Source of the DNA: Bugula neritina
Lineage: Eukaryota > Animalia > Bryozoa
Reading direction: 5' to 3'
Assembly (NCBI GenBank): GCA_964035545.1
Contig: OZ037765.1
Coordinates: 62,001 to 126,000 of the forward strand
DNA length: 64,000 nt
Of the stretch, positions 12,601 through 57,604 are shown in pieces. Position numbers and translations under genes: made by a program. Every line of letters begins with the position of its first letter. The stretch's first letter is position 1. The notes under the pieces were generated by a model. It ran no database searches. It was given only the letters and a program-made list of their open reading frames with translations, and was not told the origin of the DNA.

Positions 12601-15600
12601 TACATGTAGTATATACACTATACATGTAGTATATACACTATACATGTAGTATATACACTATACATGTAGTACATCGCACGATTGATGTGACTATTCTAAA
12701 AAGCTCACAGACATGTTTTCATACCTTCAGCACTGAAGAGCTGCTTATGCACACAAATGCTGAGCTGGACATACATACATATACGATCCTCTATACATAT
12801 ACCATCTATACATACACACCGACCTAGTTACACACCGACCTAGTTACACACTGACGTACTTACACACTGACCTAGTTACACACTGACCTAGTTACACACT
12901 GACCTAGTCACACACTGACCTAGTTACACACTGACCTAGTTACACACTGACCTACTTACACACTGACCTACTTACACACTGACCTACTTACACACTGACC
13001 TAGTTACACACTGACCTAGTTACACACCGACCTAGTTACACACTGACGTACTTACACACTGACCTAGTTACACACTGACCTAGTTACACACTGACCTAGT
13101 TACACACTGACCTAGTCACACACTGACCTAGTTACACACTGACCTAGTTACACACTGACCTACTTACACACTGACCTACTTACACACTGACCTACTTACA
13201 CACTGACCTAGTTACACACTGACCTAGTTACACACTGACCTAGTCACACACCAACCTAGTTACACACCGACGTACTTACACACTGACCTAGTTACACACT
13301 GACCTACTTACACACTGACCTAGTTACACACTGACCTAGTTACGCACTGACCTAGTCACACACCAACCTAGTTACACACCGACGTACTTACACACTGACC
13401 TAGTTACACACTGACCTACTTACACACTGACCTAGTCACACACTGACCTACTTACACACTGACGTACTTACACACCAACCTAGTTACACACCGACGTACT
13501 TACACACTGACCTAGTTACACACTGACCTACTTACACACTGACCTAGTCACACACTGACCTACTTACACACTGATGTACTTACACACTGACCTAGTTACA
13601 CACTGACCTAGTTACATACTGACCTAGTTACACACTGACCTAGTTACACACTGACCTAGTCACACACTGACCTAGTCACACACTGACCTAGTTACACACT
13701 GACCTAGTCACACACTGACCTAGTCACACACTGACCTAGTTACACACTACACAATAGCTATACGTTCAGCTCATTCATGAGCTTCATATACATACATTCA
13801 TATACAGAGTGTCTGAATACAGTTAAAAAGCAAAGCGTGTGAGTCTCAGAGATAAAAAGAGAGAGTGAAGTCAATACCATGAATTCCATCATAATATACC
13901 CACATTGGAACGGTCTCTTTAGATCCCAACAGTTCAGTAGGAAATACAGAAGTGACTTCATTCTCTCTTTCAAACCTCCATTGCGTGACAGAGAAGGAAA
14001 ACTAAGTGCTATATTAAACAAAACGAGTTTCTACTAGTTAAAAGTATGCGAGTTAGGATGGCAGTGAAACACACCCCACAGCAGTGCTATGAAATCAAGC
14101 TAACTCATAACTTGATACCTTTTACTAACTCTAGTGTGAGTTTTGATGCCACCAGCTGGAGTGGCAGCATTTGATGCAAACACTCCTGACCTGTTTAACT
14201 GAAACAGTGTATCTGTCTTACACTATACTGTGACATAGTAATGTGACACAGTAATGTGATATAGTAATGTGACATAATAATGTGACATAGTAATGTGATA
14301 TAGTAATGTGATATAGTAATGTGATATAGTAATGTGATATAGTAATGTGATATAGTAATGTGATATAGTAATGTGATATAGTAATGTGACATAGTAATGT
14401 AATATAGTAATGTGATATAGTAATGTGACATAGTAATGTGACATAGTAATGTGATATAGTAATGTGATATAGTAATGTGATATAGTAATGTGACATAGTA
14501 ATGTGATATAGTAATGCGATATAGTAATGTGACATAGTAATGTGATATAGTAATGTGAGATAGTAATGTGATATAGTAATGTGACATAGTAATGTGACAT
14601 AGTAATGTGACACAGTAATGTGATATAGTAATGTGACATAGTAATGTGACATAGTAATGTGACATAGTAATGTGATATAGTAATGTGACATAGTAATGTG
14701 ATATAGTAATGTGATATAGTAATGTGATATAGTAATGTGATATAGTAATGTGATATAGTAATGTGACATAGTAATGTGACATAGTAATGTGACATAGTAA
14801 TGTGATATAGTAATGTGACATAGTAATGTGATATAGTAATGTGATATAGTAATGTGATATAGTAATGTGATATAGTAATGTGATATAGTAATGTGATATA
14901 GTAATGTGATATAGTAATGTGACATAGTAATGTGATATAGTAATGTGATATAGTAATGTGACATAGTAATGTGACATAGTAATGTGACACAGTAATGTGA
15001 TATAGTAATGTGACATAGTAATGTGACATAGTAATGTGACATAGTAATGTGATATAGTAATGTGATATAGTAATGTGATATAGTAATGTGATATAGTAAT
15101 GTGACATAGTAATGTGATATAGTAATGCGATATAGTAATGTGACATAGTAATGTGATATAGTAATGTGAGATAGTAATGTGATATAGTAATGTGACATAG
15201 TAATGTGACATAGTAATGTGACACAGTAATGTGATATAGTAATGTGACATAGTAATGTGACATAGTAATGTGACATAGTAATGTGACATAGTAATGTGAC
15301 ATAGTAATGTGACATAGTAATGTGATATAGTAATGTGACATAGTAATGTGACATAGTAATGTGATATAGTAATGTGATATAGTAATGTGATATAGTAATG
15401 TGATATAGTAATGTGACATAGTAATGTGATATAGTAATGTGATATAGTAATGTGACATAGTAATGTGATATAGTAATGTGATATAGTAATGTGATATAGT
15501 AATGTGACATAGTAATGTGATATAGTAATGTGATATAGTAGTGTGATATAGTAATGTGATATAGTAATGTGATATAGTAATGTGATATAGTAATGTGATA

Positions 15601-18395
15601 TAGTAATGTGATATAGTAATGTGACATAGTAATGTGACATAGTAATGTGATACAGTAATGTGATATAGTAATGTGATATAGTAATGTGACATAGTAATGT
15701 GATATAGTAATGTGACATAGTAATGTGATATAGTAATGTGATATAGTAATGTGATATAGTAATGTGACATAGTAATGTGATATAGTAATGTGATATAGTA
15801 ATGTGATATAGTAGTGTGATATAGTAATGTGAGATAGTAATGTGACATAGTAATGTGACATAGTAATGTGATATAGTAATGTGACATAGTAATGTGACAT
15901 AGTAATGTGATATAGTAATGTGATATAGTAATGTGACATAGTAATGTGATATAGTAATGTGATATAGTAATGTGACATAGTAATGTGATATAGTAATGTG
16001 ATATAATAATGTGACATAGTAATGTGATATAGTAATGTGATATAGTAATGTGACATAGTAATGTGATATAGTAATGTGACATAGTAATGTGATATAGTAA
16101 TGTGATATAGTAATGTGATATAGTAATGTGATATAGTAATGTGACATAGTAATGTGATATAGTAATGTGACATAGTAATGTGACATAGTAATGTGATATA
16201 GTAATGTGATATAGTAATGTGACATAGTAATGTGATACAGTAATGTGTACGCCTACCTTTGGCTTAGCCAGCTCTTTTATACGCTGAATCTCCCGGTCAG
16301 TCACAACTCTATGAAAAAAGACTAGCCTGGGTTCCAGAGCTAGTTCCTCCTCTAAGGACGGGTAGTAACTGTGCAACATGACTCCGTACCGACACCTGAG
16401 TAGACGGGCTCTCTCCTGAAACTAGAGAACTCAACACACTGCAGTGATGTCACCATTTATCACCTAGTCACAGGTGAAGACACGACTAACTGCACACTTA
16501 CTTCTGGAAGTTGCTTCCCCTGACACAGACTCTCGTACACCCTGAAAGGAGTGGAGGCAGAGAAGCCAGCTCTCGTCTGTATGTTGTTGAGTGGGGGAAG
16601 GTGATTAGGTCTGTACACTCGTCCCGCATTGTCCAGCTCGTTGTGGTAAATGGCTAGGTTGGTGGTGCCAGGTTCAGCTCCTGGCTCCATGTCCACCCAG
16701 CGCTGGGCAGTGGCTATAGCCAGCTCAAGGTTACCTTGCTTATAGAGTGAGAAGTTGAGGTACTCCAGGGTGGATGTCACCTTCTCAAACAATACTTCTC
16801 TTGACTCATCAAACTTTCTCAATGCTGCCTCAAACCACCACACAGCGTGGTAAAAGTCGTCCATGAAAAAGGCTGTCTTGGCAATATTGAAGCAGTCTTC
16901 ACCTACAAGAGTCACACGAGAGTCACACAAAAGTCACACAAGAGTGAGTTGACAGGTTTATAAAGTGTGGTAAATGACTACCAGAAAGAGGTGGAGCCTC
17001 CAGTTCCTTGTGCGTGAGACCCAGGTTGCTGTCAGCAAGCTGTTGAGTGGACAAGTTATACGTGTCCTGTATTCTAAGAAGAGCAAGCACTGCCCCATCC
17101 ATGTCATCCTTAGTTGGCAGGGAGGAACGTGTTCTCTCTGATGCATTCTGGTACGCTGAAGAGTAAGTCAACAGTTTAGTAATACTCAGTGAGTCAATAG
17201 TTTAGTAATACTCAGTGAGTCAACAGTTTAGTAATACTCAGTGAGTCAATAGTTTAGTAATACTCAGTGAGTCAACAGTTTAGTAATACTCAGTGATTCA
17301 ACAGTTTAGTAATACTCAGTAAGTCAACAGTTTAGTAATACTCAGTGAGTCAACAGTTTAGTAATACTCAGTAAGTCAACAGTTTAGTAATACTCAGTGA
17401 GTCAACAGTTTAGTAATACTCAGTGAGTCAACAGTTTAGTAATACTCAGCGAGTCAACAGTTTAGTAATACTCAGTGAGTCAGCAGTTTAGTAATACTCA
17501 GTGAGTCAACAGTTTAGTAATACTCAGTGAGTCAACAGTTTAGTAATACTCAGCGAGTCAACAGTTTAGTAATACTCAGTGAGTCAACAGTTTAGTAATA
17601 TTACTTAGCAGCAAGTTTGTTCAGAAATTAGGAAGAATAATAAAAACGCGTGTAAACATGATTGGTTAACTACCTTCAATGTTGGAAGCTGATTGGATGG
17701 TTATAGAATCTTTCACCTGAGACATTAGATTATACATATGACTGGTGACAAGGAATGCATTGACAGGGTTAGACAGGTGTCTCTCTGGATCTCCTTGGGA
17801 GAGCACCTGATGGTGATTTGTCAACTCTTCAACATATCTAAGCAACACAACAATAACTCAACATCAGATAGCAAATTTGTAGAATACGAAGTATGTAAGA
17901 AGTTGACAATCAAATACCTCTACCAACTCATTATATTATTTAACCTTATAGCTTGTCATATTGAGGAAATTGAGATCAACGCTTGTGATATATAACAACA
18001 GAGAGAAGACAATTACTGTTTATGAAATAAATCTTTTGTTGAAAAGCAGAATTTGTTTTAAAGTTGCAACAGGACACAAAAATCAGAAGTTGCACCTAGA
18101 GCAGTATTGTGTGGAGTTGAGGTTGCACTTAGAGCAGTATTGTGTAGAGTTGAGGTTGCACCTAGAGAGATATACAAACACTTCTTACAGCATATTTTAA
18201 CAACCTTTCTAAACTTTGAATTCTATCTCTTTCTGAATCAATATACTCTTGGATATAAGAGGTAAGATCCTGTTCTGCTTGAATGACTTCTTGAAGATGC
18301 ACCATAGAAGTAAATGTGTCGCACAAGATAGACTTCACTAGGAACCCAAAGCAGACGGATATAAAGATCATCTGGTAGAGCCCCATGGAGTACAT
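9359..18395 (-). CDS. P4HA: Collagen prolyl 4-hydroxylase alpha subunit, copy 1; 12 exons (18395-18205, 17837-17674, 17155-16982, 16902-16502, 16415-16257, 14198-14119, 12255-12156, 11153-11100, 10426-10364, 10235-10167, 9889-9793, 9435-9359)
   Basis: Signal peptide then FTSMVHL; NPVNAF; [23 protein letters not shown]; RVSKSAW; [16 protein letters not shown] (HxD); [22 protein letters not shown]; AAFWYNL; [22 protein letters not shown]. All introns are GT-AG and in phase. Confidence 0.95.
9467..9625. repeat. (TA)n microsatellite in the last P4H intron
   Basis: Direct reading; the paralogous tract is at ~22900-23250. Confidence 0.95.
9900..10152. repeat. 21-bp intronic minisatellite (atatatgactaacagagtaat)
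   Basis: Tandem units; paralogous array at ~23662-23957. Confidence 0.9.
10435..11087. repeat. 25-bp intronic minisatellite (tatattatattatacatatgagtta)
   Basis: Tandem units; shorter paralogous array at ~24238-24530. Confidence 0.9.
11214..12186 (-). repeat. 53-bp tandem repeat comprising exon-7 3' end + donor (17 extra copies)
   Basis: Minus-strand unit gttagtacttgatgtatacttaactcactatatactatacagagtcccttcag; the real junction is at 12156/12155. Confidence 0.92.
12300..12671. repeat. 20-bp intronic minisatellite (tacatgtagtatatacacta)
   Basis: Tandem units; not present as an array in the second P4H copy. Confidence 0.9.
12814..13748. repeat. 17-bp intronic minisatellite (acacactgacctagtt-type)
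   Basis: Tandem units; paralogous array at ~25462-25812. Confidence 0.92.
14230..16247. repeat. 13-bp intronic minisatellite (atagtaatgtgat/c), ~155 copies
   Basis: Tandem units; source of the spurious 650-718 aa ORFs. Paralogous array at ~26294-26998. Confidence 0.95.
17165..17600. repeat. 27-bp intronic minisatellite (gagtcaacagtttagtaatactcagt-type)
   Basis: Tandem units abutting the exon-3 acceptor; paralog at ~27916-28272. Confidence 0.9.
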
Positions 18396-22794: not shown

Positions 22795-29068
<6,274 letters not shown>

Positions 29069-29206
29069 TATGTCTACAATAAGCTTACATACTGTAATAT
29101 ATTCATTATACTATCATATACCTTACGTACTGTAATATATTCATTATACTATCCTATATCTTACATACTGTAATATATTCATTATACTATCCTATATCTT
29201 ACATAC

Positions 29207-29620
29207 TGTAATATAATAAAATTAAGTGGGGAGCATAACTTGAATATAGCAAGAACAAGAGGTGTTGGTAGTTCCAAGTGTATAAATATTTATTGCATGA
29301 TGGATGCTTTAATAGGTAGTCTGTATCAGGGAGCTTCAGTAGTAGACTGATTCTTAACTGCGAGCTCGCCTGCTTTTATACACAAAAAGTTTCTTTGTTC
29401 TCATTCTGTCCGAAAGTCGAAGCCCGATTGTCGGCTTTTCCGATAATCGGAACTTGGTTCGATTATCGGAGCCTGATAATCGGCAGTGCCGACTTTCGGA
29501 CAGGATGGAATTACACAATCGCGAGTTACATAAATTATAAAAATTAGATACAAGAATAGATAATTCTACTATGATAAAGGTATAAGAATAGATAACTACA
29601 ACATTCGCCTTTCCACCACA
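29207..29620 (-). mobile_element. Probable solo-LTR-like element abutting the gypsy insertion
   Basis: tgtaat...ccaccaca ends (TG...CA); interrupts the 38-bp array; similar to 20560-20870; shares terminal ccaccaca with the gypsy LTR. Confidence 0.45.
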
Positions 29621-29624
29621 ATAT

Positions 29625-29930
29625 TGTTATAGTTTTCAGATTTAGGGTTGATGTGCTATCCAGAGAGTCTATTTATCTATTATAGAACTGCACCAGGCTA
29701 AGTCGAGTGAACGAGTATATTTTATACACAACTATACATTATAAAAACACGATACATTATTTCAAACAAGTTACACATCTAATCTATTTCACACTCTAGC
29801 TTCGACTGAGTTAGCAGCGGGAAACTACAATTGCTGCTAACTATCAACTACGCTAATTGGCTATCCATTGTTCCGGGTCAATTACGCGACCCTACATGTC
29901 GTGCTGCTGGTAGTTCCACGAACCACCACA
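29625..29930 (-). repeat. 3' LTR (306 bp)
   Basis: Direct repeat of 36821-37126; preceded on the minus strand by G-rich PPT-like gtgggggcgg (29931-29940). Confidence 0.95.
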
Positions 29931-30217
29931 CCGCCCCCACCAGCAGAAAGCCATCTTTCTGATATATATATATAAAAAAAACATTCAATAGTAATTGCGT
30001 ACATCAGTGGACAAAATAATACATAATATACAGGAAGAGACACAATAATAGGCAGAGTCATTTAACGATCCGTTGCATACAATTGGCCAGCTGTAGATAG
30101 ACGAGGAATACGAGCTAGCTGTGGTATTAGACAAGGAATAACCTGTCTAGCAGTTAAGCATTTGCACGATCTTGGCTTCTCCCAAGAGGCGGAGTTGGAG
30201 TACTCAGGGTAGTCTAA

Positions 30218-31005
30218 CTAAAGTCCTTGTTGGGCACGCCGGTGCTTGGCTTGGCATGTACGCAGTTTCCGTTTCACACGGCATACGGATCCCTTTAGCT
30301 GGAAGAGTCCTGTGGTAGTGTTAAGTAGATCTGGTGCCAGCTGGGTGAACTCTTCTTGTAATCGTAGGAGGCGTTCTTCTACTGTGGCTAGTCGTACTGG
30401 GTCTGGGGACGGTGTCCGTCTGCGGCGTAAGGGTGGACTGGGGGACCTGGTCCGTCTCTTCGCCGGGGTAGGGGAGATCTCTCCTTCTTCTGGATATGTA
30501 GTTTCCTCGGGGGTGTATGTAATTGGAGGGCGGTCAGACACCAACGGGGATTGTTGGCGGGCATTGTCTAACACACGTTGGAACCCCGAGGATAGAACGG
30601 CTAATAGCATGGCCTTCTTTACCAGAGGTCGTATACATGTGATGAACTCCGGGTACAGCTTAGCGTCGACCACATAGTTTTCTCCAGGGAAACAGCCCGC
30701 CGCTCTGTGTCTGGTGACGGGGTAGGGATACACATCATTGTACCCGCAGGGGCAGAAGGTCAGTAGGAGATGGGCATTGACGTGTAGTTTAAGGGAGCGG
30801 TGAGAGGCGCAATCTTCACCACAGATCTGGCATCTCGTCCGTCCTCTGGACCCCCAGGCTGTTTCTATTTCTTCTTCGGTTTGTGGAGACACCCACCGCC
30901 AACGGCGGCGTAGTGGCTCAGGCCGGTCACCACTAGCATGGTCCTCCGGATACGGAGCGGGAAGTGTTCTATCCCGTACCCTGGTTGTAGCGGGTCGAGT
31001 GTAAT
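30218..31005 (-). CDS. Retrotransposon ORF3: C2H2-type zinc finger, Arg/Ser/Pro-rich tract and coiled coil; probable exon 2 of a spliced mRNA (exon 1 = 36789-36747)
   Basis: CQICGEDCASHRSLKLHVNAH and CPCG...H...C; KRRTRSPSPPLRRRRTPSP; heptad-like LATVEERLLRLQEEFTQL; TACTAAC at 31031-31025 and ttttcag acceptor at 31006. Confidence 0.75.
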
Positions 31006-31318
31006 CTGAAAAAGTTTCAACTGTGTTAGTACAGTACACTGCCGTGTTGTCAGCTTGAACAGCTTGGCAACTCCTAATTCAGTTACCTCGTAGAGATTAA
31101 TGATAGTGAATAGTCAGATAGAACCGTATTGCAATGAGATTATAAAAATCTCTAAGTCAAACTGAGTTCTTACTACGGTATTTCACTAACCTATCTCCAG
31201 CTCGATTGACTCAGTGAGTCAGAGCTGAGCGATGCAATCTAGTTTCGTATTAAGATATAGTTAACTCACCCCACGATCTGTTGTCGTAAGACATACTGAA
31301 TATGTGAAATGGTTTGAA

Positions 31319-34300
31319 CTACTGCTTAGAAACACGTCTACTCCTGACTGCATCAGCGTATGAAAAGATCGAGCAACGTGGTTGGGGTGCGTGATTAAGA
31401 CTTTGTGCACCCGGCGGATGAATTTTATTTCTATTTCCGCCGATGTAAAAGTTGATATTTCCGTGGTGTTGACAACTCCCACATTTGCTCGATTCTTTTC
31501 TCGTACGGCTTTCCCCTAGACTTTCATGCGTGCCGCTTTTAACGCAGTCACATACGAAGTCCTTCAAGTATGCGGGGGGTTGCCTCGTACGCTGTCCCCT
31601 TCCTAGGGGGGGTGACACGCTTGCCGGTTCGTTAGTAGGGGCCTCTAATGGCGTCTCTACTTCACCGTCAGCGGTCACCTCTTCTTGTTCTCCGGATGGA
31701 GCCCCTCCCTCCGTGGGGGTTTGCACTTCCGGAACCGGCTCGGTTTCTGGAAGTGATGGAATTAGACTTGGTGGTGGCGGACACGCTTCTGTTGGTAGAA
31801 GCTGCCGCTCCTCTCTCACCAAGTTTTCTTCCCGCGGTATGACCACTTCGTATTCAGGTCCATGCCGCCGTCGCCCGCGCGTTGTTGTCTGCCTCCTGGG
31901 CTCTAACAACGGGGGGGCTTCTCCCACTCCGCCGGGGCTAGCCCAATACGGTTTCAAGCGAGACTCATTCTGGATAGATACCTGTCCTGAGCGCTCGATC
32001 TTGTACGTATGATTGGGCATAGCCTCGACGACCACGTAGGGGCCTACGAACTTAGGCTTCAGCTTATCAGCCTGTCCGCGGCGCCTACGGTAATTGACCA
32101 TCCACACCTTATCTCCCCTTTGATAGAGAGGGGGTTCATCGGAATCTTCGTGCCGCACCTTCCACTGCTGTTGACGCAGTATATCGTGTGCGGCCTTCAT
32201 CCGTTCCACTAGTTCACTGGCATACTCGTGAACCGAGTTATCTTGCTCTGGAACGTGATAGGTGATATGGTCAGGGACACGAGTCTCTCTCCCGAGCATC
32301 AAGAGGTTTGGGGTCTCACCAGTACTGGTGTGTGGGGTGCTACGATATGCACGCATGACTTGCGGCAACACCGTATCCCATTCCTCTTGACCTCGTCCAA
32401 GGAGGAGACTCCGGAGCGCATCACCTAGCATCCGGTTGTTGCGCTCCACCACCCCGTTACCTTGAGGGTGGTAGGGGGTGGTCCTGCTCTGATTTACTCC
32501 CCAGAGGTGGCAAAGGTCGCTCATCAGTTGAGACTGGAATTGAGCGCCTTGATCAGAGTGTATCTGTTCGGGAAGCCCAAAATAACAGAATACATGTTGG
32601 TCTAGTGCCCTGGCCACTGTTGGGGCTGATGCATCTGGGATAGCCAGAGCATCCGCCCACCTAGTAAAGTGGTCGGTTAGTACTAGGATCCAATTATTGC
32701 CTCTGGGGGTCAGGGGCATGGGTCCGACCAGGTCTACAGCGACTACTTGCCAGGGCCTGCCAGCATATAGCCTCCGCCGTCCTGCTTCACCAGGGGGGCG
32801 GCTATGCTTACTGGCCTGGCAGATCTCACACTGTTTGACTCTGAGCCGGACGTCACGCTCCATCTGCGGCCAATACCACCGGAGTCGTAATTTGGACATC
32901 ACTCGCTTGACCCCTGCGTGGGCCTGCTTGTGAGTATCCCAAATCAACTCACGGCGGATGGCTGTGGGGCAGACTACCCTCTTCCTTTCCGGGTGTCTGC
33001 CGCTGGCAGCTAGAGAGATGGTTAGCAACCCATCCTGCCCGATCCGCAGCGAGTCCCAACGCTGACAGTATAGCCGGAACTCGGCGCATCCCTGTCTTAT
33101 GCGTTCCTCGCTGGGTCGTCGCCCTTCCCGTTTGGCCCGGTATATGTCTGCCACGACTCCAGGCAGTTCTTCTTGGAGCTTCTTCAGCTCTCGAACATTA
33201 CCGGCCAGTACAGGGTTGGCGCGGAGGTTTTGCACATCCTCCGGGGACTCATCAACTCTTTGCCTGAGTTGACCTTGATCCCAGTCAAACGGTGCTCCGT
33301 GATGAGCCAGCGTCTCCAACTCGCATCGTGGGGGACCTCCATCCCTCCTCTCGATGTTGAGACACTGTTTGCAACCTCCGTCAGGTCGGCGACTCAACCC
33401 ATCCGCATTGCTGTGTCTCTTGCCCGGCCGGTGTTCGATCCGGTACGAGAATTCAGCTAGGATTTCGAGCCACCGGGCGACCTGACTAGAGGGCTCTGCT
33501 CTCCTGCACAACCAGATCAGCGAGGCATGATCCGTACGCAGCCGGAACTTCCTGCCATATAGGTATGGTCTGAAGTGCTTCACTGACTTGATTACTGCCA
33601 GCAGCTCCTTGCGGGTAGTGCAGTAATTTCGTTCAGCGGGAGAGAGAGACTTGCTGTAGTAGGCTACTACTACTTCTCGGCCTTCCTGCACTTGTGACAG
33701 CACAGCGCCAACATTCTGGTCACTGGCGTCCGTGTCTAGGATGTACTCCAGAGTGGGGTCTGGGTAGGCCAAGATGGGCGCCGTTAGGAGGCAGCCCTTG
33801 AGGCGGTCGAACGCTTCTTGTTCGACTGGAGTCCACTGCCACGTCACTCCCTTTGCGGTAAGCCGGTTTAACGGCTGGGCTATGCCCGCAAAGTCTGGTA
33901 TGTATTGCCTGTAATACCCTACCAGCCCCAAGAAAGCCCGGAGTCCGGTCAAGTCTTGGAGGGTGACCCAGTCTTCTACTGCCCGTACCTTCTCGGGATC
34001 CGTTGCCACGCCGTTTCGACCGACAACGTGCCCCAGGTACTTGACCTCCGGCTGCAACAGAGCGCACTTGGAAGGTTTGAGCTTAAGACCGGCACCTCGG
34101 AGTCTCTCGAAAACCTCCTGCAGACGACTGACATGTGTCTCGAAGTCTGGAGAGATTACGATGACATCATCGAGGTAGACCAGCAGTGTCTTCCAATGGA
34201 GTCCGCTAAGGACTTGTTCCATCAGCCTCTGGAAGGTGGCTGGGGCGGAGGTTAACCCGAAGGGCAGCACCTTCCACTTCCACAAACCGTCCCGTGTGAT

Positions 34301-35887
34301 AAACGCCGCTTTCTCTTGGGCGTCGGGACTCAGAGGAACCTGCCAATAGCCGCTTAGCAAGTCTAACGTACTGAAGTACTTGCTGCCGGCTAGGGCGTCC
34401 AATGACTCGTCAATACGAGGTAGAGGGTAGGCGTCCTGTATGGTTACGCTATTGAGTTTGCGGTAGTCCACACAGAACCGCCAACTGCCGTCTTTCTTCC
34501 GGACCAGTACGACTGGCGAGCTCCACGCACTATGGGCGGGCTCTATCAGTCCCCGGTCCAGAAGATCCCGTACTTGTCGGCTAACCTCCTTCTCTTTCTC
34601 CGGCCCCAGCCTGCGCGTGGGCTGCCGGACAGGGACTGTCCCTGCAGTCAGCGGTATTTCGTGTCTGACAATTCCAGTCAGTCCCACGTCATGCTCTCCG
34701 CTGCTGAACACATCACCGTAGTCGCGTAGTAACTTGGCCATAGCTTGGCGTTCTCTGTTACTCGCGCAGCCGCCACTGGCTGTTTCGTATAACTCCCGGA
34801 GATGTGTTGGGACTGCCCCTCGTCCCTGAATAGGGTGTCGAGGGGGTGCCTCCGTCGCGTCACCCAGCGACGGGCCTACGTCTCCCTCCTGAACAGAGTG
34901 AAAACGGCCCAGCATCGACCCAGCCGGGAGCTTGATAGGCTCGGTAAAGGGGTTGACGCACTGCACTAAGATCTCCCCTTGCTCAGTCAGCTGATTCAGA
35001 CTGCTGGCAAGTTGGATCTTTTCGTGCGCGCCTTCAACCACCCCGAGTCCAGAGATCTGGCTACTATTCACCCTGCAGTGAATGGTAGCCCGGGAGCGGC
35101 CTGGTATGGTACGGTTGCGTACCACTTGCACACCTCCCACTAAAGGGCAGCCGAACTTGTCGACGCAGGCGAGTTCCCGCCCGGACATCATCATTGCAGA
35201 TCTGCTAAAATCTATGTGACATCCGTGCCGTTTAAGGAACGGCATCCCGAGGATAGCATCCTCCTTGAGCTGACTGACGATGAACGTCTCTTGGATCGTT
35301 TGATCGCGGACTCGTCCCGTCAGCTCAATTATACCATAGAAGGGAAGGCACGACCCGTCAGCTAGGGTGCCGTATTCCCCTTCGTATGCTTCCATCTCGC
35401 CCCTGACCCTGGCACTGAGGGTGTCGAAGAGTTGGCGGCTTAAGAGGTTTGTGGTACAGCCCGAATCAATGAGAAAAGTAACAGCTTTGCCTTCCAGTTT
35501 ACCGGGCAAGAAATAGCTGTTCCCATGGGGCTGCACCTGAACTCTCCCTTCAGGCCTTACTCTCGCAGGGAGTACCTCCCTCGCTTTGGGTCGCGAAGGA
35601 GGTCTCTTGGGGCGGTGATAGGTAGGCCTCGGGGGTGCCGAGGTTAGATTCTCAGCTACCTTTGTGTGCTCCCATCCAGATTCTTGGACTTGTAGCCCTG
35701 TGAATCTGTTGTGAAGGGGCATAGAAAAGGCAGCCGCGGGGCGAAGCCCCTTGCTGGTCCGTCGTGGCTGTTGCCACTGTTGGTTGCCAGTACGCGGTAC
35801 CCGTCTGGGTGACCTGCGTTTCTTCTTCCCTAGAGGTTTCGTCGGCCCGCCGAAGGTGGGAACATCTGCGGGCCGCGGTAGTTTAAC
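31319..35887 (-). CDS. pol: Pol polyprotein (protease, RT, RNase H, integrase), reached by -1 frameshift from gag
   Basis: FLIDSGCT protease; WRFCVDYRKLN, LPFGL and YLDD for RT; TDAS and LRTDH for RNase H; HHCC, VDLVG / SDQGAQF / VERNN and KFVGPY for integrase. Uninterrupted ORF. Confidence 0.97.
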   Translation of the reverse strand, partial: VKLPRPADVPTFGGPTKPLGKKKRRSPRRVPRTGNQQWQQPRRTSKGLRPAAAFSMPLHNRFTGLQVQESGWEHTKVAENLTSAPPRPTYHRPKRPPSRPKAREVLPARVRPEGRVQVQPHGNSYFLPGKLEGKAVTFLIDSGCTTNLLSRQLFDTLSARVRGEMEAYEGEYGTLADGSCLPFYGIIELTGRVRDQTIQETFIVSQLKEDAILGMPFLKRHGCHIDFSRSAMMMSGRELACVDKFGCPLVGGVQVVRNRTIPGRSRATIHCRVNSSQISGLGVVEGAHEKIQLASSLNQLTEQGEILVQCVNPFTEPIKLPAGSMLGRFHSVQEGDVGPSLGDATEAPPRHPIQGRGAVPTHLRELYETASGGCASNRERQAMAKLLRDYGDVFSSGEHDVGLTGIVRHEIPLTAGTVPVRQPTRRLGPEKEKEVSRQVRDLLDRGLIEPAHSAWSSPVVLVRKKDGSWRFCVDYRKLNSVTIQDAYPLPRIDESLDALAGSKYFSTLDLLSGYWQVPLSPDAQEKAAFITRDGLWKWKVLPFGLTSAPATFQRLMEQVLSGLHWKTLLVYLDDVIVISPDFETHVSRLQEVFERLRGAGLKLKPSKCALLQPEVKYLGHVVGRNGVATDPEKVRAVEDWVTLQDLTGLRAFLGLVGYYRQYIPDFAGIAQPLNRLTAKGVTWQWTPVEQEAFDRLKGCLLTAPILAYPDPTLEYILDTDASDQNVGAVLSQVQEGREVVVAYYSKSLSPAERNYCTTRKELLAVIKSVKHFRPYLYGRKFRLRTDHASLIWLCRRAEPSSQVARWLEILAEFSYRIEHRPGKRHSNADGLSRRPDGGCKQCLNIERRDGGPPRCELETLAHHGAPFDWDQGQLRQRVDESPEDVQNLRANPVLAGNVRELKKLQEELPGVVADIYRAKREGRRPSEERIRQGCAEFRLYCQRWDSLRIGQDGLLTISLAASGRHPERKRVVCPTAIRRELIWDTHKQAHAGVKRVMSKLRLRWYWPQMERDVRLRVKQCEICQASKHSRPPGEAGRRRLYAGRPWQVVAVDLVGPMPLTPRGNNWILVLTDHFTRWADALAIPDASAPTVARALDQHVFCYFGLPEQIHSDQGAQFQSQLMSDLCHLWGVNQSRTTPYHPQGNGVVERNNRMLGDALRSLLLGRGQEEWDTVLPQVMRAYRSTPHTSTGETPNLLMLGRETRVPDHITYHVPEQDNSVHEYASELVERMKAAHDILRQQQWKVRHEDSDEPPLYQRGDKVWMVNYRRRRGQADKLKPKFVGPYVVVEAMPNHTYKIERSGQVSIQNESRLKPYWASPGGVGEAPPLLEPRRQTTTRGRRRHGPEYEVVIPREENLVREERQLLPTEACPPPPSLIPSLPETEPVPEVQTPTEGGAPSGEQEEVTADGEVETPLEAPTNEPASVSPPLGRGQRTRQPPAYLKDFVCDCVKSGTHESLGESRTRKESSKCGSCQHHGNINFYIGGNRNKIHPPGAQSLNHAPQPRCSIFSYADAVRSRRVSKQ
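35826..35887 (-). promoter_or_regulatory. Predicted -1 ribosomal frameshift signal: G_UUA_AAC + pseudoknot
   Basis: Heptamer at 35887-35881 in the gag frame, 5-nt spacer, 8-bp stem cggcccgc/gcgggccg, and loop ttccc complementary to downstream gggaa. Confidence 0.7.
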
Positions 35888-36789
35888 CCCTGATTTAGGA
35901 AGGGACAATATCGGCGGAAATGTCCTTGATTTCCGCACTCCCAGCAAAAACTGACTGTTTCTCCCTGTGGCGGCGCCGATGGCCGCATGGGCTCAGGGGC
36001 GGTACTCACTGGGTTTTGTGGTGTCAGTGTTGCTATCAGCTTGGCTAGCATGTCCGTCAGTTGAGTGACTTTTGATGCCGTCGCCAACTGGGACACGGCA
36101 GCCGCGGCGGGGGTTTCCTCCCCTTGTCCCGCGGCCGTGTCTGCGCGGTCTATCTCCACTTGGCGGGAGCTTCCGCGACTTTTATGCATTTGGTTAGCTA
36201 GGAGGTAAGCTTCCCCCTCAGTCAGAGCATCTTCAACGGTGGTGACTCCCCTAGCTAGAAACTGGTGGTGGAGACCCAGGTCGTCGACAGATGCTATGAA
36301 AGCGTCGAGGGTGTACCTCTCGCGGTTGACTGGGGGCAAGTCGCTGTACGCGATCTGTGCCAGCTTCATGACCGCGGCGGCATGCTCCCGCAGCGGGGTG
36401 CGGGGATCACGCCGCAACCTCTGTAATCGGGCCCTGGCATCTGTAGCCGAGAGGCCAAAGCGGGCCCGCAGAGAAGCAAAGATATTATCAATGTCTACGC
36501 CCAGCCCATAGGGCTTGGCTTTGTCCATCAATGCCATTCTAAGCTTCAGCAGGGCCACCCTAGGGGGCCACTGAGCGACGTCCATTACGTCGCTAAACTC
36601 TTGGATAAATTGTTCCACCTCCTCTTCACCCGTGAAGGTGGGCGCCTTTAACCTGTAGCGGTCTTCAGCTAGTTCTCGCGGAACCCTTCGCTCTTCTACT
36701 ACATGGTTAACAGGCATTGTCTCTACAGCATTGTCTCTACGCTCACCTTCGATTGCCGGTGGTTGAGTTCCAGCATTTGCAGTCTCCAT
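35830..36789 (-). CDS. gag: Gag protein with CCHC zinc knuckle
   Basis: 319-aa ORF starting just after the PBS; CWECGNQGHFRRYC. Confidence 0.92.
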   Translation of the reverse strand: METANAGTQPPAIEGERRDNAVETMPVNHVVEERRVPRELAEDRYRLKAPTFTGEEEVEQFIQEFSDVMDVAQWPPRVALLKLRMALMDKAKPYGLGVDIDNIFASLRARFGLSATDARARLQRLRRDPRTPLREHAAAVMKLAQIAYSDLPPVNRERYTLDAFIASVDDLGLHHQFLARGVTTVEDALTEGEAYLLANQMHKSRGSSRQVEIDRADTAAGQGEETPAAAAVSQLATASKVTQLTDMLAKLIATLTPQNPVSTAPEPMRPSAPPQGETVSFCWECGNQGHFRRYCPFLNQGLNYRGPQMFPPSAGRRNL

Positions 36790-36801: not shown

Positions 36802-36819
36802 ATCCCACTGCTGCCACCA
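36802..36819 (-). other. Primer-binding site, tRNA-Leu-like
   Basis: TGGTGGCAGCAGTGGGAT 1 nt inside the 5' LTR; the complement atcccactgctgccacca resembles the 3' end of eukaryotic tRNA-Leu(AAG/TAG)+CCA. Confidence 0.8.
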
Positions 36820-36820
36820 C

Positions 36821-37126
36821 TGTTATAGTTTTCAGATTTAGGGTTGATGTGCTATCCAGAGAGTCTATTTATCTATTATAGAACTGCACCAGGCTAAGTC
36901 GAGTGAACGAGTATATTTTATACACAACTATACATTATAAAAACACGATACATTATTTCAAACAAGTTACACATCTAATCTATTTCACACTCTAGCTTCG
37001 ACTGAGTTAGCAGCGGGAAACTACAATTGCTGCTAACTATCAACTACGCTAATTGGCTATCCATTGTTCCGGGTCAATTACGCGACCCTACATGTCGTGC
37101 TGCTGGTAGTTCCACGAACCACCACA
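36821..37126 (-). repeat. 5' LTR (306 bp)
   Basis: No differences from the 3' LTR found by eye. Confidence 0.95.
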
Positions 37127-50000: not shown

Positions 50001-51842
50001 GACTATATAATATCTCAGACTACATATAATATCTCAGACTACTCACACATTCGGGGCCAGGAAGTGATGCGTGTTGGGTTTCACGTATCCAGCAGAGAGC
50101 TGAGCAAAGAACATCAGCACTTCCCCTGCGGCACCTGAATTCATAGTAATATAATATTATGGCAATGTAGTAATATAGTAACATATCGATATAATAATAT
50201 AGTAATATATCGATATAGTAATATAATATTATGGTAATGTAGTAATATAGTAACATATCGATATAGTAATATAGTAATATATCAATATAGTAATATAATA
50301 TTATGGTAATATAGTAATATATCGATATAATAATATAGTAATATAATATTATGGTAATATAGTAATATATCATAATAGTAATATAATATTATGGTAATAT
50401 AGTAATATATCGATATAATAATATAGTAATATATCGATATATAGTAATATAGCAATATAATATAGTCATATAGTAATATAATATTATAGATTGTATATAC
50501 AGAGTATGACTACCTTTGAGAAAGCCGTTAGTGAAGAGAATGAGGGGCTGGTAGGGGTGGAGAGACTGGGCCTCCCTAACTCCGTTGTGTACATTGTATA
50601 GCCTGTGAACCTCCTTCAGAGCCAGGATGATGGAGAGAACAGGTCTAGTGGTAAGGAGAGAGAAGACACCAGGTACGTAGTTGACTATGTACCACAGCAA
50701 GCTAGCCAGGGCTATTTTCTCAGGATTGACTAACAACACTGCCAAAGGTTTCCCAAAGAGGAGACAACTCAATATTCCTCCAGAAAAGCATATCATTATT
50801 GTAGCCAGCCAGGATGCTAGCGGATGCTTCCTTTCGTACGGAAATGGTGCTAAAATATACATCTTATTATCATGTAATTAAAATGATTACCATCATAGCT
50901 ATGTGGCGGGTACAACTATTACTTATAGTTATACCAATACTGACACTGTCAATATGTATACCTAAACTAATATGGTTAAGTAGTGCATTAGTTATCAAAC
51001 TCTCAGTCTCACTTATTAAGTTTTAGGTAAAATTTTAATTATGTTGATTACGTTTATCACCTAATCAATATGAAAATCATTATCATTATGATATTAAAGT
51101 CATATTATATTATTACTGATTGGATTTGATGCTGAAACCGAGTAAGTAACTAGTAACTAGTAAATGTAATAAGCATAACTAATAACTATAAATGAAAAGC
51201 TATTATTTATTAGTATTACTATTACTAATACTATAAGTATAAGTATAACTATTTAGTATTTAGTAATTACTAATTTAGATAGATATTTGCTCCCGAGTCA
51301 GAGTTGCTACATCAGTACATGAACTTCTGTTAAGACTTGGTGTTACTTCAACTTTAAGTTTAAGTCACCCACAGCAAGACTGATGGTAATATACTAATAG
51401 TAATAGTAATAGTAATATTTAAATTATACTATATTAATATTTAACTCACTAAAACTAAAAGTAAATATAATTACTAAATGGTAACGGAAACTGTAAGAGT
51501 TAGAGACTGAATTTGAAACAACTGCGAGATTAACTTTAAGGGTAACAGTAACACTTGCACTAACACCAACAGTAACACTCTAACAGTAACACTAACAGCA
51601 TCAGGCTCAGCATGAGTCTCAGACTGAAACTAAGAGTAACTGTAAGACTAAGAGTAACTCAAATTGTAAGAGGCAAATTGAAATTGAAAGTTAAAATTGA
51701 AATACTGATACTCACAGAGGTTGTGAAGATCCCTTTTGATATTCACTGCCATAAGTGCATAGTGAACAATTTCAAATGCAGGGGACATTTTTAATTTGGT
51801 TGACGCCATACATATTGCATAGAAATCCATTTTCGATACCAT
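47054..51842 (-). CDS. TMEM38: Trimeric intracellular cation channel (TRIC); exons 51842(or 51830)-51716, 50849-50514, 50134-50047, [47476-47459 optional], 47345-47054
   Basis: MSPAFEIVHYALM, RKHPLASWLATIMICFSGGILSCLLFGKP, LKEVHR, GFLKGAAG and DPFVPFEN match TRIC family motifs; phases are consistent. Confidence 0.92.
47496..50042. repeat. 19-21-bp intronic minisatellite (tctcagactata(ta)taata), ~2.5 kb
   Basis: Tandem units starting just after the donor gtgagt. Confidence 0.95.
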
Positions 51843-53572: not shown

Positions 53573-56500
53573 CTAATACCTTGGTACAGCTCTCACGTTA
53601 TAGTCTGTGATATCAAACACTATTTTTAGCTTGTAGTTTCTAGGATCAGGGCTAGGAGGGGGGTTGTGTGGGTCAACCTCAAACTTGAAGTTCTGTACGA
53701 GAGTGCATATGCTGAGGAAGAGTCTGTTCTTTGCCAGATTTTCACCTATACATCCACGTTTACCGAGTCCAAACGTCACCAAACTGGAGAGGAAATAAGA
53801 GAGAGTGTCTCATTAGTTCTAGCATACAGCAGTGCTAACTCTCTCACTAGTTCTAGCACATAGCAGTGCTAACTCTCTCACTAGTTCTAGCACATAGCAG
53901 TGCTAACTCTCTCACTAGTTCTAGCATACAGCAGTGCTAACTCTCTCACTAGTTCTAGCATACAGCAGTGCTAACTCTCTCACTAGTTCTAGCACAGAGC
54001 AGTGCTAACTCTCTCACTAGTTCTAGCATACAGCAGTGCTAACTCTCTCACTAGTTCTAGCATACAGCAGTGCTAACTCTCTCACTAGTTCTAGCATACA
54101 GCAGTGCTAACTCTCTCACTAGTTCTAGTATACAGCAGTGCTAACTCTCTCACTAGTTCTAGCATACAGCAGTGCTAACTATCTCACTAGTTCTAGCACA
54201 GAGCAGTGCTAACTCTCTCACTAGTTCTAGCATACAGCAGTGCTAACTCTCTCACTAGTTCTAGCATACAGCAGTGCTAACTCTCTCACTAGTTCTAGCA
54301 TACAGCAGTGCTAACTCTCTCATTAGTTCTAGCATACAGCAGTGCTAACTCTCTCACTAGTTCTAGCATACAGCAGTGCTAACTCTCTCACTAGTTCTAG
54401 CATACAGCAGTGCTAACTCTCTCACTAGTTCTAGCATACAGCAGTGCTAACTCTCTCACTAGTTCTAGTATACAGCAGTGCTAACTCTCTCACTAGTTCT
54501 AGCATACAGCAGTGCTAACTATCTCACTAGTTCTAGCACAGAGCAGTGCTAACTCTCTCACTAGTTCTAGCATACAGCAGTGCTAACTCTCTCACTAGTT
54601 CTAGCATACAGCAGTGCTAACTCTCTCACTAGTTCTAGCACAGAGCAGTGCTAACTCTCTCACTAGTTCTAGCACATAGCAGTGCTAACTCTCTCATTAG
54701 TTCTAGCACACAGCAGTGCTAACTCTCTCACTAGTTCTAGCATACAGCAGTGCTAACTCTCTCACTAGGTCTAGCATACAGCAGTGCTAACTCTCTCACT
54801 AGTTCTAGCATACAGCAGTGCTAACTCTCTCACTAGTTCTAGCATACAGCAGTGCTAACTCTCTCACTAGTTCTAGCACACAGCAGTGCTAACTCCCTCA
54901 CTAGTTCTAGCATACAGCAGTGCTAACTCTCTCACTAGTTCTAGCATACAGCAGTGCTAACTCTCTCGCTAGTTCTAGCACACAACAGTGCTAACTCTAT
55001 CACTAGTTCTAGCACACAACTCACTTCTTCCTGGTGCAGTGCTGTTGAGGCAGAAGCTGCCCGAGAGAGTCGAGGAATCTCTCTGGTTTGTAACTCATGG
55101 AGTCTGGGTAGACGGCCTCGTTGTGGTGTATGGCCCAGGAGTTGGTGTAGACCTGCAGTGTAAGTATGAGTAATATACCTCTAACAATATAATGTAATCA
55201 TACAGCATTATACACCATCTTGTGGCAGTCAATCAACTGAGAACATTAACATTTCCACCGGTTTTTGACTGGAAATATAGAATTTGACGAAATTCATAAA
55301 CCGTAGCCGCTGCAAGTTTGAAGGTCAAACCTACATTTACATTAACAACTGAATACAAATTACTGTTATTAGGAGTCATTCTTACAGACAGGTACGCACC
55401 CAGGTGCCTTTAGGGATAGAATATCCGCACAGCTGTGTGTCGCTGACTGTCTCACGTGGGATTAGTATCGGCAGCGTGCACTGGTATCTCATCAGCTCAA
55501 ACAGACACGCCTCCACATAGGGCATAGAGGGTCTATCAGAGAGATGAGGGTATCTGTCCCTCCCCACCACCTCGTCCACCTGAGTATGCAGTCTCTGCTG
55601 CAGTTTGGGAGAGTTGACTAGGATGAGCAGGAAACCGTAGAGAGTGGTGGCGGTGGTCTCCACGCCCCCCACGAAGTAGTCTATGAGCAGCCCGCAGACG
55701 TCAGCATCCTCTATGCTGCCCTCTCTCACCTGAGAGATGTAAGTGTCTATGACGCCTCTCTCGTGGCCCTCGATGTAGGTGTCCTGCAGTCAGTGGTGTA
55801 GTGTAGGAATAGATAGTCAGTAGTGTAGTGTAGGAAGAGGTTTGAAATTTGCATAATTATGGAATCAGTCAATATTTGGAGTGTGACATAACGTCATAAG
55901 ACACCCACCTTGTATTTCTGGTAGAGTGGCAGAATGTTCCGGTCAAATATTTCTCTAGCTTTGACACAAAGTGTGTAGTTGGGGTTAAAGTGCTTGGTGA
56001 AGGTCCACACATCTATATCCTCCTTCCCGATAGTTGCTAGTTCTACGGCAATGTCATTGAACTCAAGTATCTGGTCCAAAACCTTGTCTTCACTTGCCAC
56101 CTTCTCTCCAAAAATCTACAAGTGTGACAAACACAAACTGAGTTAATAATAGTTGTAGTAGTACTAGTAGTAGTAGTAATCATAGTAGTACTAGTAGTAG
56201 TAGTACTAGTAGTAGTACTTACAATAGAAATAATAACGTTGAGGAGGCACTTTTTGATGAGGACTTTGGGGTTGAAAGGCTGGCCACCCTGAGCTCTCAT
56301 TATTCTCACCAACTCTGAGAGGTTCTCATTTATTATGTTGTCCAGGTGGGCTAAACTCTCCATCTTCAGGGATCTGATGCCCTGTAGCCTCAGCTGCTTC
56401 TGCTTTTCTGAATACGGCTGCAGAAAACATGCATGAGTCACACCATGACATCATCTCTGTCACAGAACACCAGTCATGTATCACACTAGGCACTTCTCTA

Positions 56501-57604
56501 ACACTTACAATAAAGTTAGCATTTCCTGCTTAAAAGTCACACTTGGTAAGACATCCTTTGTGTGGCTGCTCTTACAACATGACAAATAAAAGTAGTAATA
56601 AAAAGTGACTCATTCCTTACACACCTCTCACTCATAACTTTATTTAAAGTTTATTATATTTCAAGAATACCACAGAACTGATGCCCTATCCAAGTGGTGA
56701 AAATGCAATTCACTCTCAGAAACTCCATACGTCTATCAACTGGTTACCTCAACTAATCAAAATTTATTGGCACGTTTTGAGCATTGCATCAATTACTAAT
56801 CGTTTATTAACGAGTTAAGTATTCTTCCAGCTGAGTGTGTGTCATAGTTGTCAATCATTCGAGATGTGGTGGGCGGAGCTATCCTACATGCGGTAAATCT
56901 GATTGACAGGTAAAACACGTGGGATTACCCAACACCCACAGCGTGAAATGAGAAGGAATGAAGAAATTTTATGATAAATATAGAATGAGTAGGCCGAAGT
57001 GACTAATTTCCTACTGAGTAAACACACAAGGTGAATATGTCCTTAACCAGGTAGCTCGTTATTCAGTAGAGTTGCTGTTTCAGTCTCAAGTTAAATCAGA
57101 CACAATCCTAAACATTTTAGACTGTCCTTGGAGAATGTGTGAAGAGCAAGAGCTGTAATAGGGGTCAATCAGGTAGTAGTAGTAAATGTAAACTCGCGCA
57201 GTCACTAAGGCACCAATAGAATGACAAGAGAAACTTGTAGTAAATACATGTAATGTTAGACTTACGCTGAACGCAATGCCACGTATTGCTCTCACAACCT
57301 CAAACCTTAGCATTTTTGGTCGACCAATAAAATCTTTTCCTCTTTTCAGGTAAGCTTCCCGATAGGCTTCGTAAGAGTTGATGACTACAGCTGGCTGACT
57401 GAGGATTTGTATTCTGAATACGTCACCAAACTGCTCGGCAAACTCTGTGAACTGTAAGTGCAGCTCTGAGAAGCGGAACTGAACGTTGCCAAATATGGGC
57501 AGGCGGAACGGTCCCGGAATTACTTGGAGCTTGTCTTTCTGTTGGCAAACTACATAAATGAGAGTCAATACTACAACCGCTAAGATGATGGTGATCAAAT
57601 CCAT
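53573..57604 (-). CDS. Cytochrome P450, probably clan 2 (CYP1/2/17-like); exons 57604-57266, 56417-56223, 56115-55909, 55783-55400, 55152-55025, 53783-53573
   Basis: N-terminal TM + PGPFRLPIFGN, I-helix GGVETT, ELMR (ExxR), KPERF, haem motif FGLGKRGCIG; GT-AG introns in phase. Confidence 0.95.
53806..55017. repeat. 33-bp intronic minisatellite (ctagttctagcatacagcagtgctaactctctca-type)
   Basis: Fills the last CYP intron almost end to end. Confidence 0.95.

Follow-up and report, generated by a model that had tools for sequence, protein, structure and literature searches.

A bryozoan Ty3/gypsy element with a predicted gag-spliced zinc-finger gene in the env position, encoding a putative regulator of the element

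In errantiviruses (gypsy, ZAM), env is expressed from a spliced 5'-leader message, and in complex retroviruses the small regulators Tat/Tax/Tas and Rev/Rex are made from spliced messages and act on the virus's own promoter or RNA. For most ORFs in the env position of LTR retrotransposons no function is known. In bdelloid LTR elements, non-env ORF3s code for a GDSL esterase and a DEDDy exonuclease (PMC5408684), and some of the additional ORFs of plant elements are nuclear (PMC7264820); the words 'zinc' and 'finger' are absent from the rotifer paper, as is 'zinc' from the plant review. The MDG1 group has a nuclear sORF1 and a transmembrane fusogen, sORF2, and its transcripts are reported to be unspliced (10.1101/2025.03.14.642691). 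In Cer1, a Ty3/gypsy element of C. elegans organised as a single ORF, gag-frame exons are spliced to a non-env ORF in the env position; the product, CERV (517 aa, five exons, with H, M and G-protein-like domains and a putative C4 finger), is nuclear and is needed for export of the genomic RNA, not for transcription (PMC10309623). The original prediction did not recognise the arrangement below as a described one; that it is undescribed we reject, since the published account of Cer1 CERV already has a gag splice to an env-position nuclear regulator.

Here we analyse an element found in a 64,000-nucleotide stretch of Bugula neritina DNA (the window), in which an ORF, ORF3, lies after pol and before the 3' LTR. 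Our preferred reading, to which we give a probability of about 0.38, is that a gag-spliced, soluble protein of 276 residues, with a finger pair and a coiled coil, controls LTR transcription from the nucleus. That the ORF3 protein in some way regulates the element's own expression is likely; both functions are putative.

The element is complete, with LTRs, an ATAT duplication, gag, pol in the -1 frame and ORF3 (Table 1). Its termini are those of Ty3/gypsy elements (TG...CA LTRs, target duplication, primer-binding site and polypurine tract), as is the order of gag followed by PR-RT-RH-IN in Pfam searches, and it is intact and recently inserted. The match of gag to zf-CCHC is weak (E 0.14, Pfam); 128 gag relatives were found.

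Table 1. Features of the element, in window coordinates
Feature	Position	Strand	Remark
ATAT target-site duplication	37130-37127 and 29624-29621
5' LTR	36821..37126	-	306 bp, TG...CA; 100% identical to 3' LTR
Inverted repeat in U3, perfect 10 bp, 14-nt spacer	37005..37038	.	also in 3' LTR
TATA-like TATAAA	36922		in 5' LTR
Primer-binding site	36802..36819	-	starts TGG; read from sequence; presumably tRNA-Leu type
gag	35830..36789	-	319 aa, one CCHC knuckle; ATG at 36789
Predicted exon 1, coding part	36747..36789	-	43 nt, gag codons 1-14 plus one base; first ATG past TATA box
Splice donor AAG/GTGAGC	36741..36749	-	cut 36747/36746; phase 1
Predicted intron	36746-31006	-	5741 nt
Candidate -1 frameshift site G-UUA-AAC	35881..35887	-	stem behind it; pol in -1 frame; we take it to be of the -1 frameshift heptamer type
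pol frame, stop to stop	31319..35992	-	1557 aa; protease, RT, RNase H, integrase, SH3-like tail
Branch point TACTAAC	31025..31031	-
Splice acceptor TTTTTCAG	31006..31013	-	AG at 31007-31006
ORF3 exon, to stop	30218..31005	-	262 codons including junction codon
Globular double-finger domain	30521..30940	-	W-x-S helix, two fingers, helical cap
C2H2 finger (finger 1)	30832-30770	-
C2HC finger (finger 2)	30754-30692	-
Basic RS/P tract	30404..30460	-	particular to this sub-lineage
C-terminal heptad helix	30230..30397	-	basic patch at end; most conserved segment among close relatives
Polypurine tract	29931..29941	-	read from sequence
3' LTR	29625..29930	-	306 bp, matches 5' LTR exactly

The donor, branch point, acceptor and phase of the proposed splice were recomputed and proved correct. 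The donor ranks first among the element's 431 GT sites under an approximate weight matrix. ORF3 is entered in phase 1, matching the donor, and by arithmetic the joined product has 276 codons, in agreement with the in-frame protein of the original prediction. The sole Met of the ORF3 frame lies at 30610, downstream of both fingers, and the earlier statement that there is no usable upstream ATG holds. First-order Markov resampling produced the succession of branch point, pyrimidines and AG, a pattern defined post hoc once the site had been seen, in 0.2% of 5000 trials on the 369-nt spacer and in 1.55% of 2000 trials on the entire internal region; the element matches it a second time at 31637, within pol. 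When pyrimidines are simply counted, a crude measure, the acceptor falls outside the element's top 12; its tract is short. The GC content is 0.38 in the spacer and climbs to 0.56 in the ORF3 exon.

A relative carries the join at the level of protein. P0023 (261 aa, JGI) begins with 14 residues identical to the N-terminal ones of a gag relative, P0127, and continues with Asp and then ORF3; its ORF3 part is 53% identical to that of the window, and the join falls at the predicted junction residue. P0023 comes from a 5320-nt contig of RNA or DNA, shorter than the predicted intron of this element. Moreover, E-G-E is found in 38 of 47 gag N-termini, its columns being conserved at 0.91, 0.89 and 1.0 as against 0.32-0.66 for the adjacent columns, and it is also present in gags with shorter leaders; judged from these alignments, E-G-E is the protein imprint of the donor AG/GTGAG. 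On the acceptor side, 20 of 21 relatives have Ser or Leu just before the junction Asp, and two diverged copies keep the branch point one base nearer the AG, with the frame upstream of the AG shifted by one base. Run X1 (21 contigs) neither shows nor excludes the splice, because no RNA contig lies over the acceptor: depth over 30805-31065 is that of one contig ending at 30857, and over 31066-31326 it is zero. In run X2, of unrecorded kind, the junction is absent both from the joints listed (15 of 47) and from the loose ends listed at the acceptor (6 of 8). We strongly infer that ORF3 is likely expressed via a splice from gag exon 1, because the joined form of a sister element sits in a protein database. 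The predicted joining of gag exon 1 to ORF3 is thus supported by P0023 and by the imprints of donor and acceptor, and a CERV-type join of a gag-frame exon to an env-position non-env ORF is indicated by P0023 and the matching phase rather than by RNA junction reads.

Conceivably, a functional ORF3 is made mainly in some other way, from an internal promoter or from one of the other donors between pol and the acceptor, such as 31269 and 31086, the gag join being minor or accidental. Many distant relatives have long N-terminal leaders of their own with a Met, and the gag-ORF3 join was seen in only one of the 198 family proteins scanned (P0023). This copy, however, has no ATG ahead of the fingers, no donor of the element outscores that of gag, the imprint is conserved and P0023 joins at the exact residue, which makes such a route improbable.

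The protein is accounted for by a 140-aa C2H2/C2HC domain, a linker and one helix. In Pfam no family exceeds its cut-off in ORF3; the C2H2 finger alone falls below it (E 0.13), and it is reached by one of 63 distant relatives, yet the ligands are conserved. The finger ligands C,C,H,H,C,C,H are kept in 57-59 of 58-59 rows and the last Cys in 45 of 55. Finger 1 has the C-x2-C...H-x3-H beta-beta-alpha pattern, with profile matches to C2H2 structures (E 2.6e-7), and carries K or R at two positions of its helix in 81% of rows. What had been called a second Cys/His cluster is present and can now be described as a second zinc finger, C-x-C...H...C; in this clade prolines stand where its helix begins. 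In place of a TGEKP-type linker and a second C2H2 finger, both absent, the domain has a five-residue hydrophobic linker and this finger. The RS/P tract, also noted earlier, is real in this copy but is not a feature of the family: basic triplets occur in the linker of 4 of 43 proteins. With these counts and one RS/SR dipeptide in the linker of the window's protein, an SR/RS-domain protein is ruled out. The heptad helix is amphipathic, with a majority conservation of 0.88. A homodimer prediction, run without an alignment, scored 0.02 and carries no weight either way. No transmembrane segment was found in the protein (best 19-residue hydropathy 1.47; 3 of 43 relatives reach 1.6), nor a signal peptide, a TM anchor, an F- or gB-type ectodomain or, in Pfam, an env family, and env is ruled out.

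The domain is modelled with confidence (pLDDT 93.4, pTM 0.86) as a pair of fingers, C2H2 and C2HC, with helices wrapped around it, and the whole protein at pLDDT 63. At E 0.001 or better, no fold match was found for the whole protein in PDB or BFVD, or with Foldseek for the domain in PDB. The best structural match of the domain, Z 3.5 among 48,161 chains, is weak, and the lack of a full PDB match does not establish a new fold. Over residues 34-83 the domain can be superposed on finger pairs bound to DNA (for ZBTB7A, 2.4 A across 50 residues at Z 3.0), although such superpositions, at 2.4-3.0 A over about 50 residues and Z at most 3.5, are weak; the matches in the ESM Atlas are solely unnamed or generic C2H2 clusters. 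Finger pairs may bind RNA or protein as well. The C2H2 finger, heptad helix and non-env character put forward in the original prediction, and a soluble protein, are borne out by ligand conservation, a hydropathy of at most 1.47 and the predicted fold.

The ORF3 protein family appears undescribed. Relatives numbered 72 by close match and 114 by profile, bryozoan gene models among them; viral and prokaryote scans gave none, and a metagenome scan gave a single locus, an unrelated zinc-finger exon (L001). A check of linkage to gypsy gag and pol and of conservation, as suggested at the outset, came out in favour of both. Four of the 12 ORF3 matches on contigs of at least 5.9 kb share their exact contig size with a gag match (about 0.05 expected), and in P0315 a gypsy RNase H-integrase, 50% identical to this pol, shares one frame with a distant ORF3 domain. 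When long fused forms were sought with the wide alignment, not one turned up in 7977 candidates (1044-2980 aa); that search is insensitive, because P0315 exists. Across lineages 45-60% identical ORF3 is retained, with ligands and helix conserved. Linkers and leaders diverge fast.

The double-finger domain also occurs in uncharacterised gene models of Watersipora subatra (XP_067940964.1, XP_067944745.1) and Bugula neritina (KAF6040922.1, KAF6040923.1, KAF6037488.1), with one or two copies of the domain and, in several, a C-terminal helix. This would fit a host zinc-finger exon that was captured and is carried along without function, as would the near copies, in which 3 of 4 listed ORF3 variants are non-synonymous as against 7 of 25 in core pol, in a tiny, pre-filtered sample. 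However, the named host-genome relatives are only about 24-30% identical to ORF3, the domain adjoins pol in a far lineage, and the ORF is kept with its ligands and helix; a functionless passenger is highly improbable, and recent capture of a host exon is rejected. A tree of the domain, made by a quick method from 88 of 134 domain rows with most close relatives omitted, and weak at its base, leaves the direction of host/element transfer unsettled.

On the reading as a regulator of LTR transcription, the first 43 coding bases of gag would be joined to ORF3 in the env position, and the spliced RNA, without gag-pol, would code for the ORF3 protein alone. The basic C-terminal patch may serve nuclear import and the heptad helix self-association. 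The finger pair, predicted to be arranged like DNA-bound tandem fingers and with a basic first recognition helix, might then bind U3 and give positive feedback on LTR transcription. A candidate binding site, or RNA hairpin, is the U3 inverted repeat, some 85-115 nt upstream of the TATA box, which 1 of 500 dinucleotide shuffles equalled. Regions upstream of the domain are net acidic in 26 of 30 distant relatives. The weak structural matches, the prolines of finger 2, the lack of a clear acidic activation segment in this copy and an acidic-hydrophobic motif in only 6 of 30 distant relatives count against the transcriptional reading, as does the sole characterised gypsy precedent, CERV, which acts on RNA export and is dispensable for transcription. 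A fuller version, in which an animal gypsy lineage has its own sequence-specific factor, gag-spliced and binding the LTR inverted repeat in a Tas/Tax-like manner, with a domain exchanged with bryozoan host genes, is doubtful.

Alternatively, the spliced protein could bind unspliced element RNA in the nucleus, licensing its export or blocking splicing, and gag-pol RNA would appear only once the protein has accumulated. This is the gene logic of Cer1 CERV: genomic RNA disappears from the cytoplasm when cerv carries a stop. The donor and branch point are near consensus, suggesting default splicing; the end of the intron (315 nt) has a better predicted folding than its shuffles (z -2.6, 1 of 100); the basic C-terminal patch is conserved in 32 of 43 proteins; and P0315 has the ORF in frame with pol, as Cer1 does. 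On the other hand, the ORF3 protein has nothing resembling the domains described for CERV (H, M, G-protein-like, C4 finger, about 517 aa), its predicted fold is a classical finger pair, the RS tract is unconserved, NES-like patterns (regex) are unspecific and fall inside the folded domain, and Rfam has no match anywhere in the element. Folding of the 3' UTR is ordinary (z -0.54), and sliding-window z-scores (119 windows, 20 shuffles each) are too noisy to locate a response element. An RNA switch of this kind is possible, if somewhat unlikely. The fingers might also target element DNA or RNA, the coiled coil serving to sequester or recruit some component of host silencing; or the protein might guide integration. 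A nucleic-acid-binding module with so conserved an amphipathic helix, the in-frame fusion of the domain behind the integrase in P0315 and the fast divergence of linkers and leaders would suit such an anti-silencing or chromatin factor, but searches of Pfam, PDB and BFVD gave no likeness to known silencing suppressors, and we consider it unlikely.

Among known systems, errantivirus env resembles ORF3 in position (PMC13524379) and, by prediction, in expression from a spliced 5'-leader message, whereas ORF3 is without signal peptide, TM anchor and glycoprotein ectodomain. The bdelloid and plant ORFs are likewise extra conserved env-position ORFs thought to be auxiliary, but belong to other protein families in the accounts given (PMC5408684, PMC7264820). 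The MDG1-group sORFs are accessory ORFs of env-less gypsy elements too, and differ in their unspliced transcripts and transmembrane sORF2 (10.1101/2025.03.14.642691). To Tat/Tax/Tas and Rev/Rex no sequence or fold match was found, and the likeness is one of analogy only. CERV and the predicted ORF3 protein share a non-env ORF placed after pol and before the 3' LTR, the splicing of gag-frame 5' exons onto it, a Gag-shared N-terminus, solubility, a Cys-rich finger, a leucine zipper and a basic signal (PMC10309623). In contrast to CERV, ORF3 is a separate ORF whose 276-aa product has one intron, 14 gag residues, a C2H2 + C2HC pair and a C-terminal heptad helix; its description sets it apart from CERV, and its architecture argues that it arose independently. 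Among spliced gypsy regulators, our literature searches found a demonstrated role for CERV alone. The ORF3 family would be a second case, unrelated to it in structure. Its fold is predicted with confidence, its metal ligands are defined, a joined form occurs naturally, one copy was recently active and a candidate for the target site is at hand, and repeated evolution of Tat-like or Rev-like genes by gypsy elements becomes a testable question. The domain's presence in bryozoan gene models raises the matter of exchange between element and host. If the transcription-factor reading is true, these would be 'complex' retrotransposons, with a regulatory gene of an origin independent from that of Cer1 CERV.

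On its minus strand, the window carries a complete Ty3/gypsy LTR retrotransposon, equipped with primer-binding site and polypurine tract and flanked on both sides by ATAT. The pol frame is -1 relative to gag and lies behind a G-UUA-AAC heptamer and a stem. We take this heptamer to be of the class found at -1 frameshift sites; most gag relatives that extend to the candidate site end in a G/E-L-N motif. The identity of the two LTRs, together with the open frames, suggests a recent insertion. Diverged copies of the element are numerous in the second of two runs examined (X2; 6135 contigs). The element lies a short way past the second copy of a duplicated segment, which is either a recent duplication or an assembly artefact.

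Features of the element and of its surroundings
Feature	Position	Strand	Remarks
LTRs	37126-36821 and 29930-29625	-	306 bp each, 100% identical
gag		-	319 aa
pol		-	open frame of 1557 codons; protease, RT, RNase H, integrase, gypsy order
Candidate -1 frameshift signal	35887-35840	-	G-UUA-AAC heptamer and stem
Predicted exon 1 donor	36747/36746	-	top score among 431 GT sites
ORF3 exon (predicted)	31005-30218	-	between pol and 3' LTR
Second acceptor match	31637-31603	-	TACTAAC, pyrimidines and AG, in pol 3' end
Donor ranked second	31269	-	GGG/GTGAGT, just past pol stop
Duplicated segment	16249-18548 and 27000-29215		97.6-98.8% identity, identical exon translations; resembling prolyl 4-hydroxylase alpha
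Satellite and minisatellites	58630-64000, 14200-16250, 26260-27010		long 22-bp satellite (>220 units), intronic minisatellites; spurious long ORFs
Host exons	213-1688		resembling an ankyrin-repeat protein (translation)
Host exons	3201-4319		resembling a caspase-like domain (translation)
Host exons	5688-6179		resembling ClpP (translation)
Host exons	50389-50877		resembling a TRIC-type channel (translation)
Host exons	55382-57646		resembling a cytochrome P450 (translation)

All coordinates originally predicted for a splice from gag into ORF3, the gene in the env position, were borne out. The gag ATG is the first past the TATA box; exon 1 and the ORF3 exon meet in matching phase (phase 1), for a total of 276 codons. 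The ORF3 frame has a single Met, downstream of both zinc fingers, so no ATG within the frame could start the conserved domain. The pyrimidine tract before the acceptor is short, and the branch-plus-acceptor pattern, which was picked after the fact, was rare, arising in 0.2% of 5000 spacer resamplings. The second acceptor match and the second-ranked donor could define an optional middle exon.

In the RNA run X1, no contig spans the ORF3 acceptor; in X2, junction 36747^31005 was not found among the joints shown (15 of 47) or the loose ends shown (6 of 8). A database relative of ORF3, P0023 (53% identical over 233 columns), opens with the same 14 residues as P0127, a gag relative (70% identical to the gag of the window element), after which come Asp and then ORF3. 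This protein, the only one of 198 scanned to display the join (score 73 vs 33 for the runner-up), is, by its sequence, what this join would be expected to yield in a sister lineage. Its source is a JGI contig of 5320 nt, shorter than the 5741-nt predicted intron, and other JGI matches begin at V or non-ATG sites, like the output of prokaryotic gene callers; we infer from both that the contig already contains the join, being either RNA or a reverse-transcribed copy.

The splice sites also appear imprinted in relatives. The gag N-terminus is retained in 47 of the 120 gag matches listed, and 38 of these, including gags with shorter leaders, carry at the donor position E-G-E, the residues encoded by AG/GTGAG, in an otherwise variable leader. 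The junction is covered by 21 of 72 ORF3 matches; 20 of these have Ser or Leu just before it, as a YAG acceptor dictates, and P0023 has Glu. Two diverged X2 copies keep the branch motif one base nearer the AG, so that acceptor spacing, but not the upstream frame, is maintained. We conclude that ORF3 is very likely spliced from gag exon 1; its production by another route seems improbable.

The 72 relatives were retrieved by phmmer from 1409 candidates (45-98% identical; none with a Pfam match or name). When the window protein was aligned with 42 of them, the longer ones being picked, the eight metal ligands were 88-100% conserved and the C-terminal helix was the most conserved segment. The RS/P tract, to which the original prediction gave weight, proved to be a sub-lineage insertion, with basic triplets in 4 of the 43 proteins. 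Searching 1.84 billion representatives with a profile yielded 114 matches at E 0.001 or better. The more remote members (about 17-39% identical) have in common a W-x-S/T helix, then a C2H2 finger joined by a short linker to a C-x-C...H...C finger, and a V-D motif. Next there usually come a basic Pro/Ser-rich linker, net positive in 23 of 30, and the C-terminal helix; the region upstream of the domain is net acidic in 26 of 30. Cluster records were consulted for 20 of the distant proteins; five clusters had entries that name an organism, in each case the bryozoan Watersipora subatra or Bugula neritina, which makes a bryozoan host likely for the window. A locus-scan match in a metagenome (L001, 94-231) was rejected as an unrelated host C2H2 exon.

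Linkage of ORF3 to gypsy was found. Four of 12 ORF3 matches on contigs of at least 5.9 kb share the exact contig size with a gag match (about 0.05 expected); a fifth pair, involving a short contig, could be accidental. In P0315 (1460 aa; ENA, 7219-nt contig), RNase H and integrase share 50% identity with the pol of the element, and the ORF3 domain follows them in frame at 1072-1184. Both P0315 and P0215 have the domain in frame with the pol tail, so gene arrangement varies within the family. The ORF3 feature is real and well conserved. The double-finger domain occurs twice in P0211/P0303, P0258 and P0304, two of them bryozoan gene models; these are possibly domesticated or donor host genes, and a domain tree did not settle the direction of exchange with host genes.

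The whole-protein model was weak (pLDDT 63), whereas a 140-residue core modelled with 59 sequences reached pLDDT 93.4 and pTM 0.86. Foldseek found no match to the core at E 0.001 or better, and the best Z among 48,161 chains was 3.5; the helical wrapping around the fingers had no match in either comparison. Superposition of the finger pair (34-83) on tandem fingers bound to DNA gave 2.4-3.0 A across about 50 residues, so that the modelled fingers are of known type. The first recognition helix has K/R at two positions in 81% of rows, and 13 of 16 a/d positions of the last helix are hydrophobic. The product is predicted to combine a finger pair with a coiled coil; as originally stated, it has no TM segment.

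The functional clues are the tandem-finger fold with its basic helix, the acidic leaders of distant members and the heptad helix. Together with a perfect 10-bp inverted repeat in U3, matched in 1 of 500 shuffles, they lead us to favour, tentatively (probability about 0.38), a spliced protein that would act in the nucleus, binding DNA to regulate the LTR. A Rev-like role in RNA export or as a splicing switch is a somewhat less probable reading; it has a direct precedent in CERV, a protein of C. elegans Cer1, strong splice signals need something to offset them, and the end of the intron shows modest structure (z -2.6). An anti-silencing or integration role is unlikely. That ORF3 is functionless cargo is very improbable, even though 3 of the 4 ORF3 variants listed for near copies change a residue (vs 7 of 25 in core pol; a tiny, pre-filtered sample), which sides with it.

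Non-env ORF3s are reported, in the text available, from rotifers (PMC5408684) and plants (PMC7264820), as are unspliced sORFs of MDG1 (10.1101/2025.03.14.642691) and bryozoan errantiviruses with a gB-type env (PMC13524379). The main text of the last lacks the words "zinc finger" and "splice", and the accessible part of PMC6338049 held nothing relevant. We found no description of this zinc-finger ORF3 family in the full-text literature searched, which covered few subscription papers and neither Repbase nor Dfam; the double-finger family is apparently undescribed. The arrangement itself, which the original prediction did not recognise as known, counts as described, because the available account of CERV (PMC10309623) presents an env-position, non-env ORF spliced to gag-frame exons. 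CERV is nuclear, has a Cys finger and is required for export of genomic RNA (PMC10309623). The layout of P0315 resembles that of single-ORF Cer1. By its description (PMC10309623), CERV differs from the ORF3 product in size and domains; the feature is a CERV-type arrangement with an apparently undescribed double-finger family.
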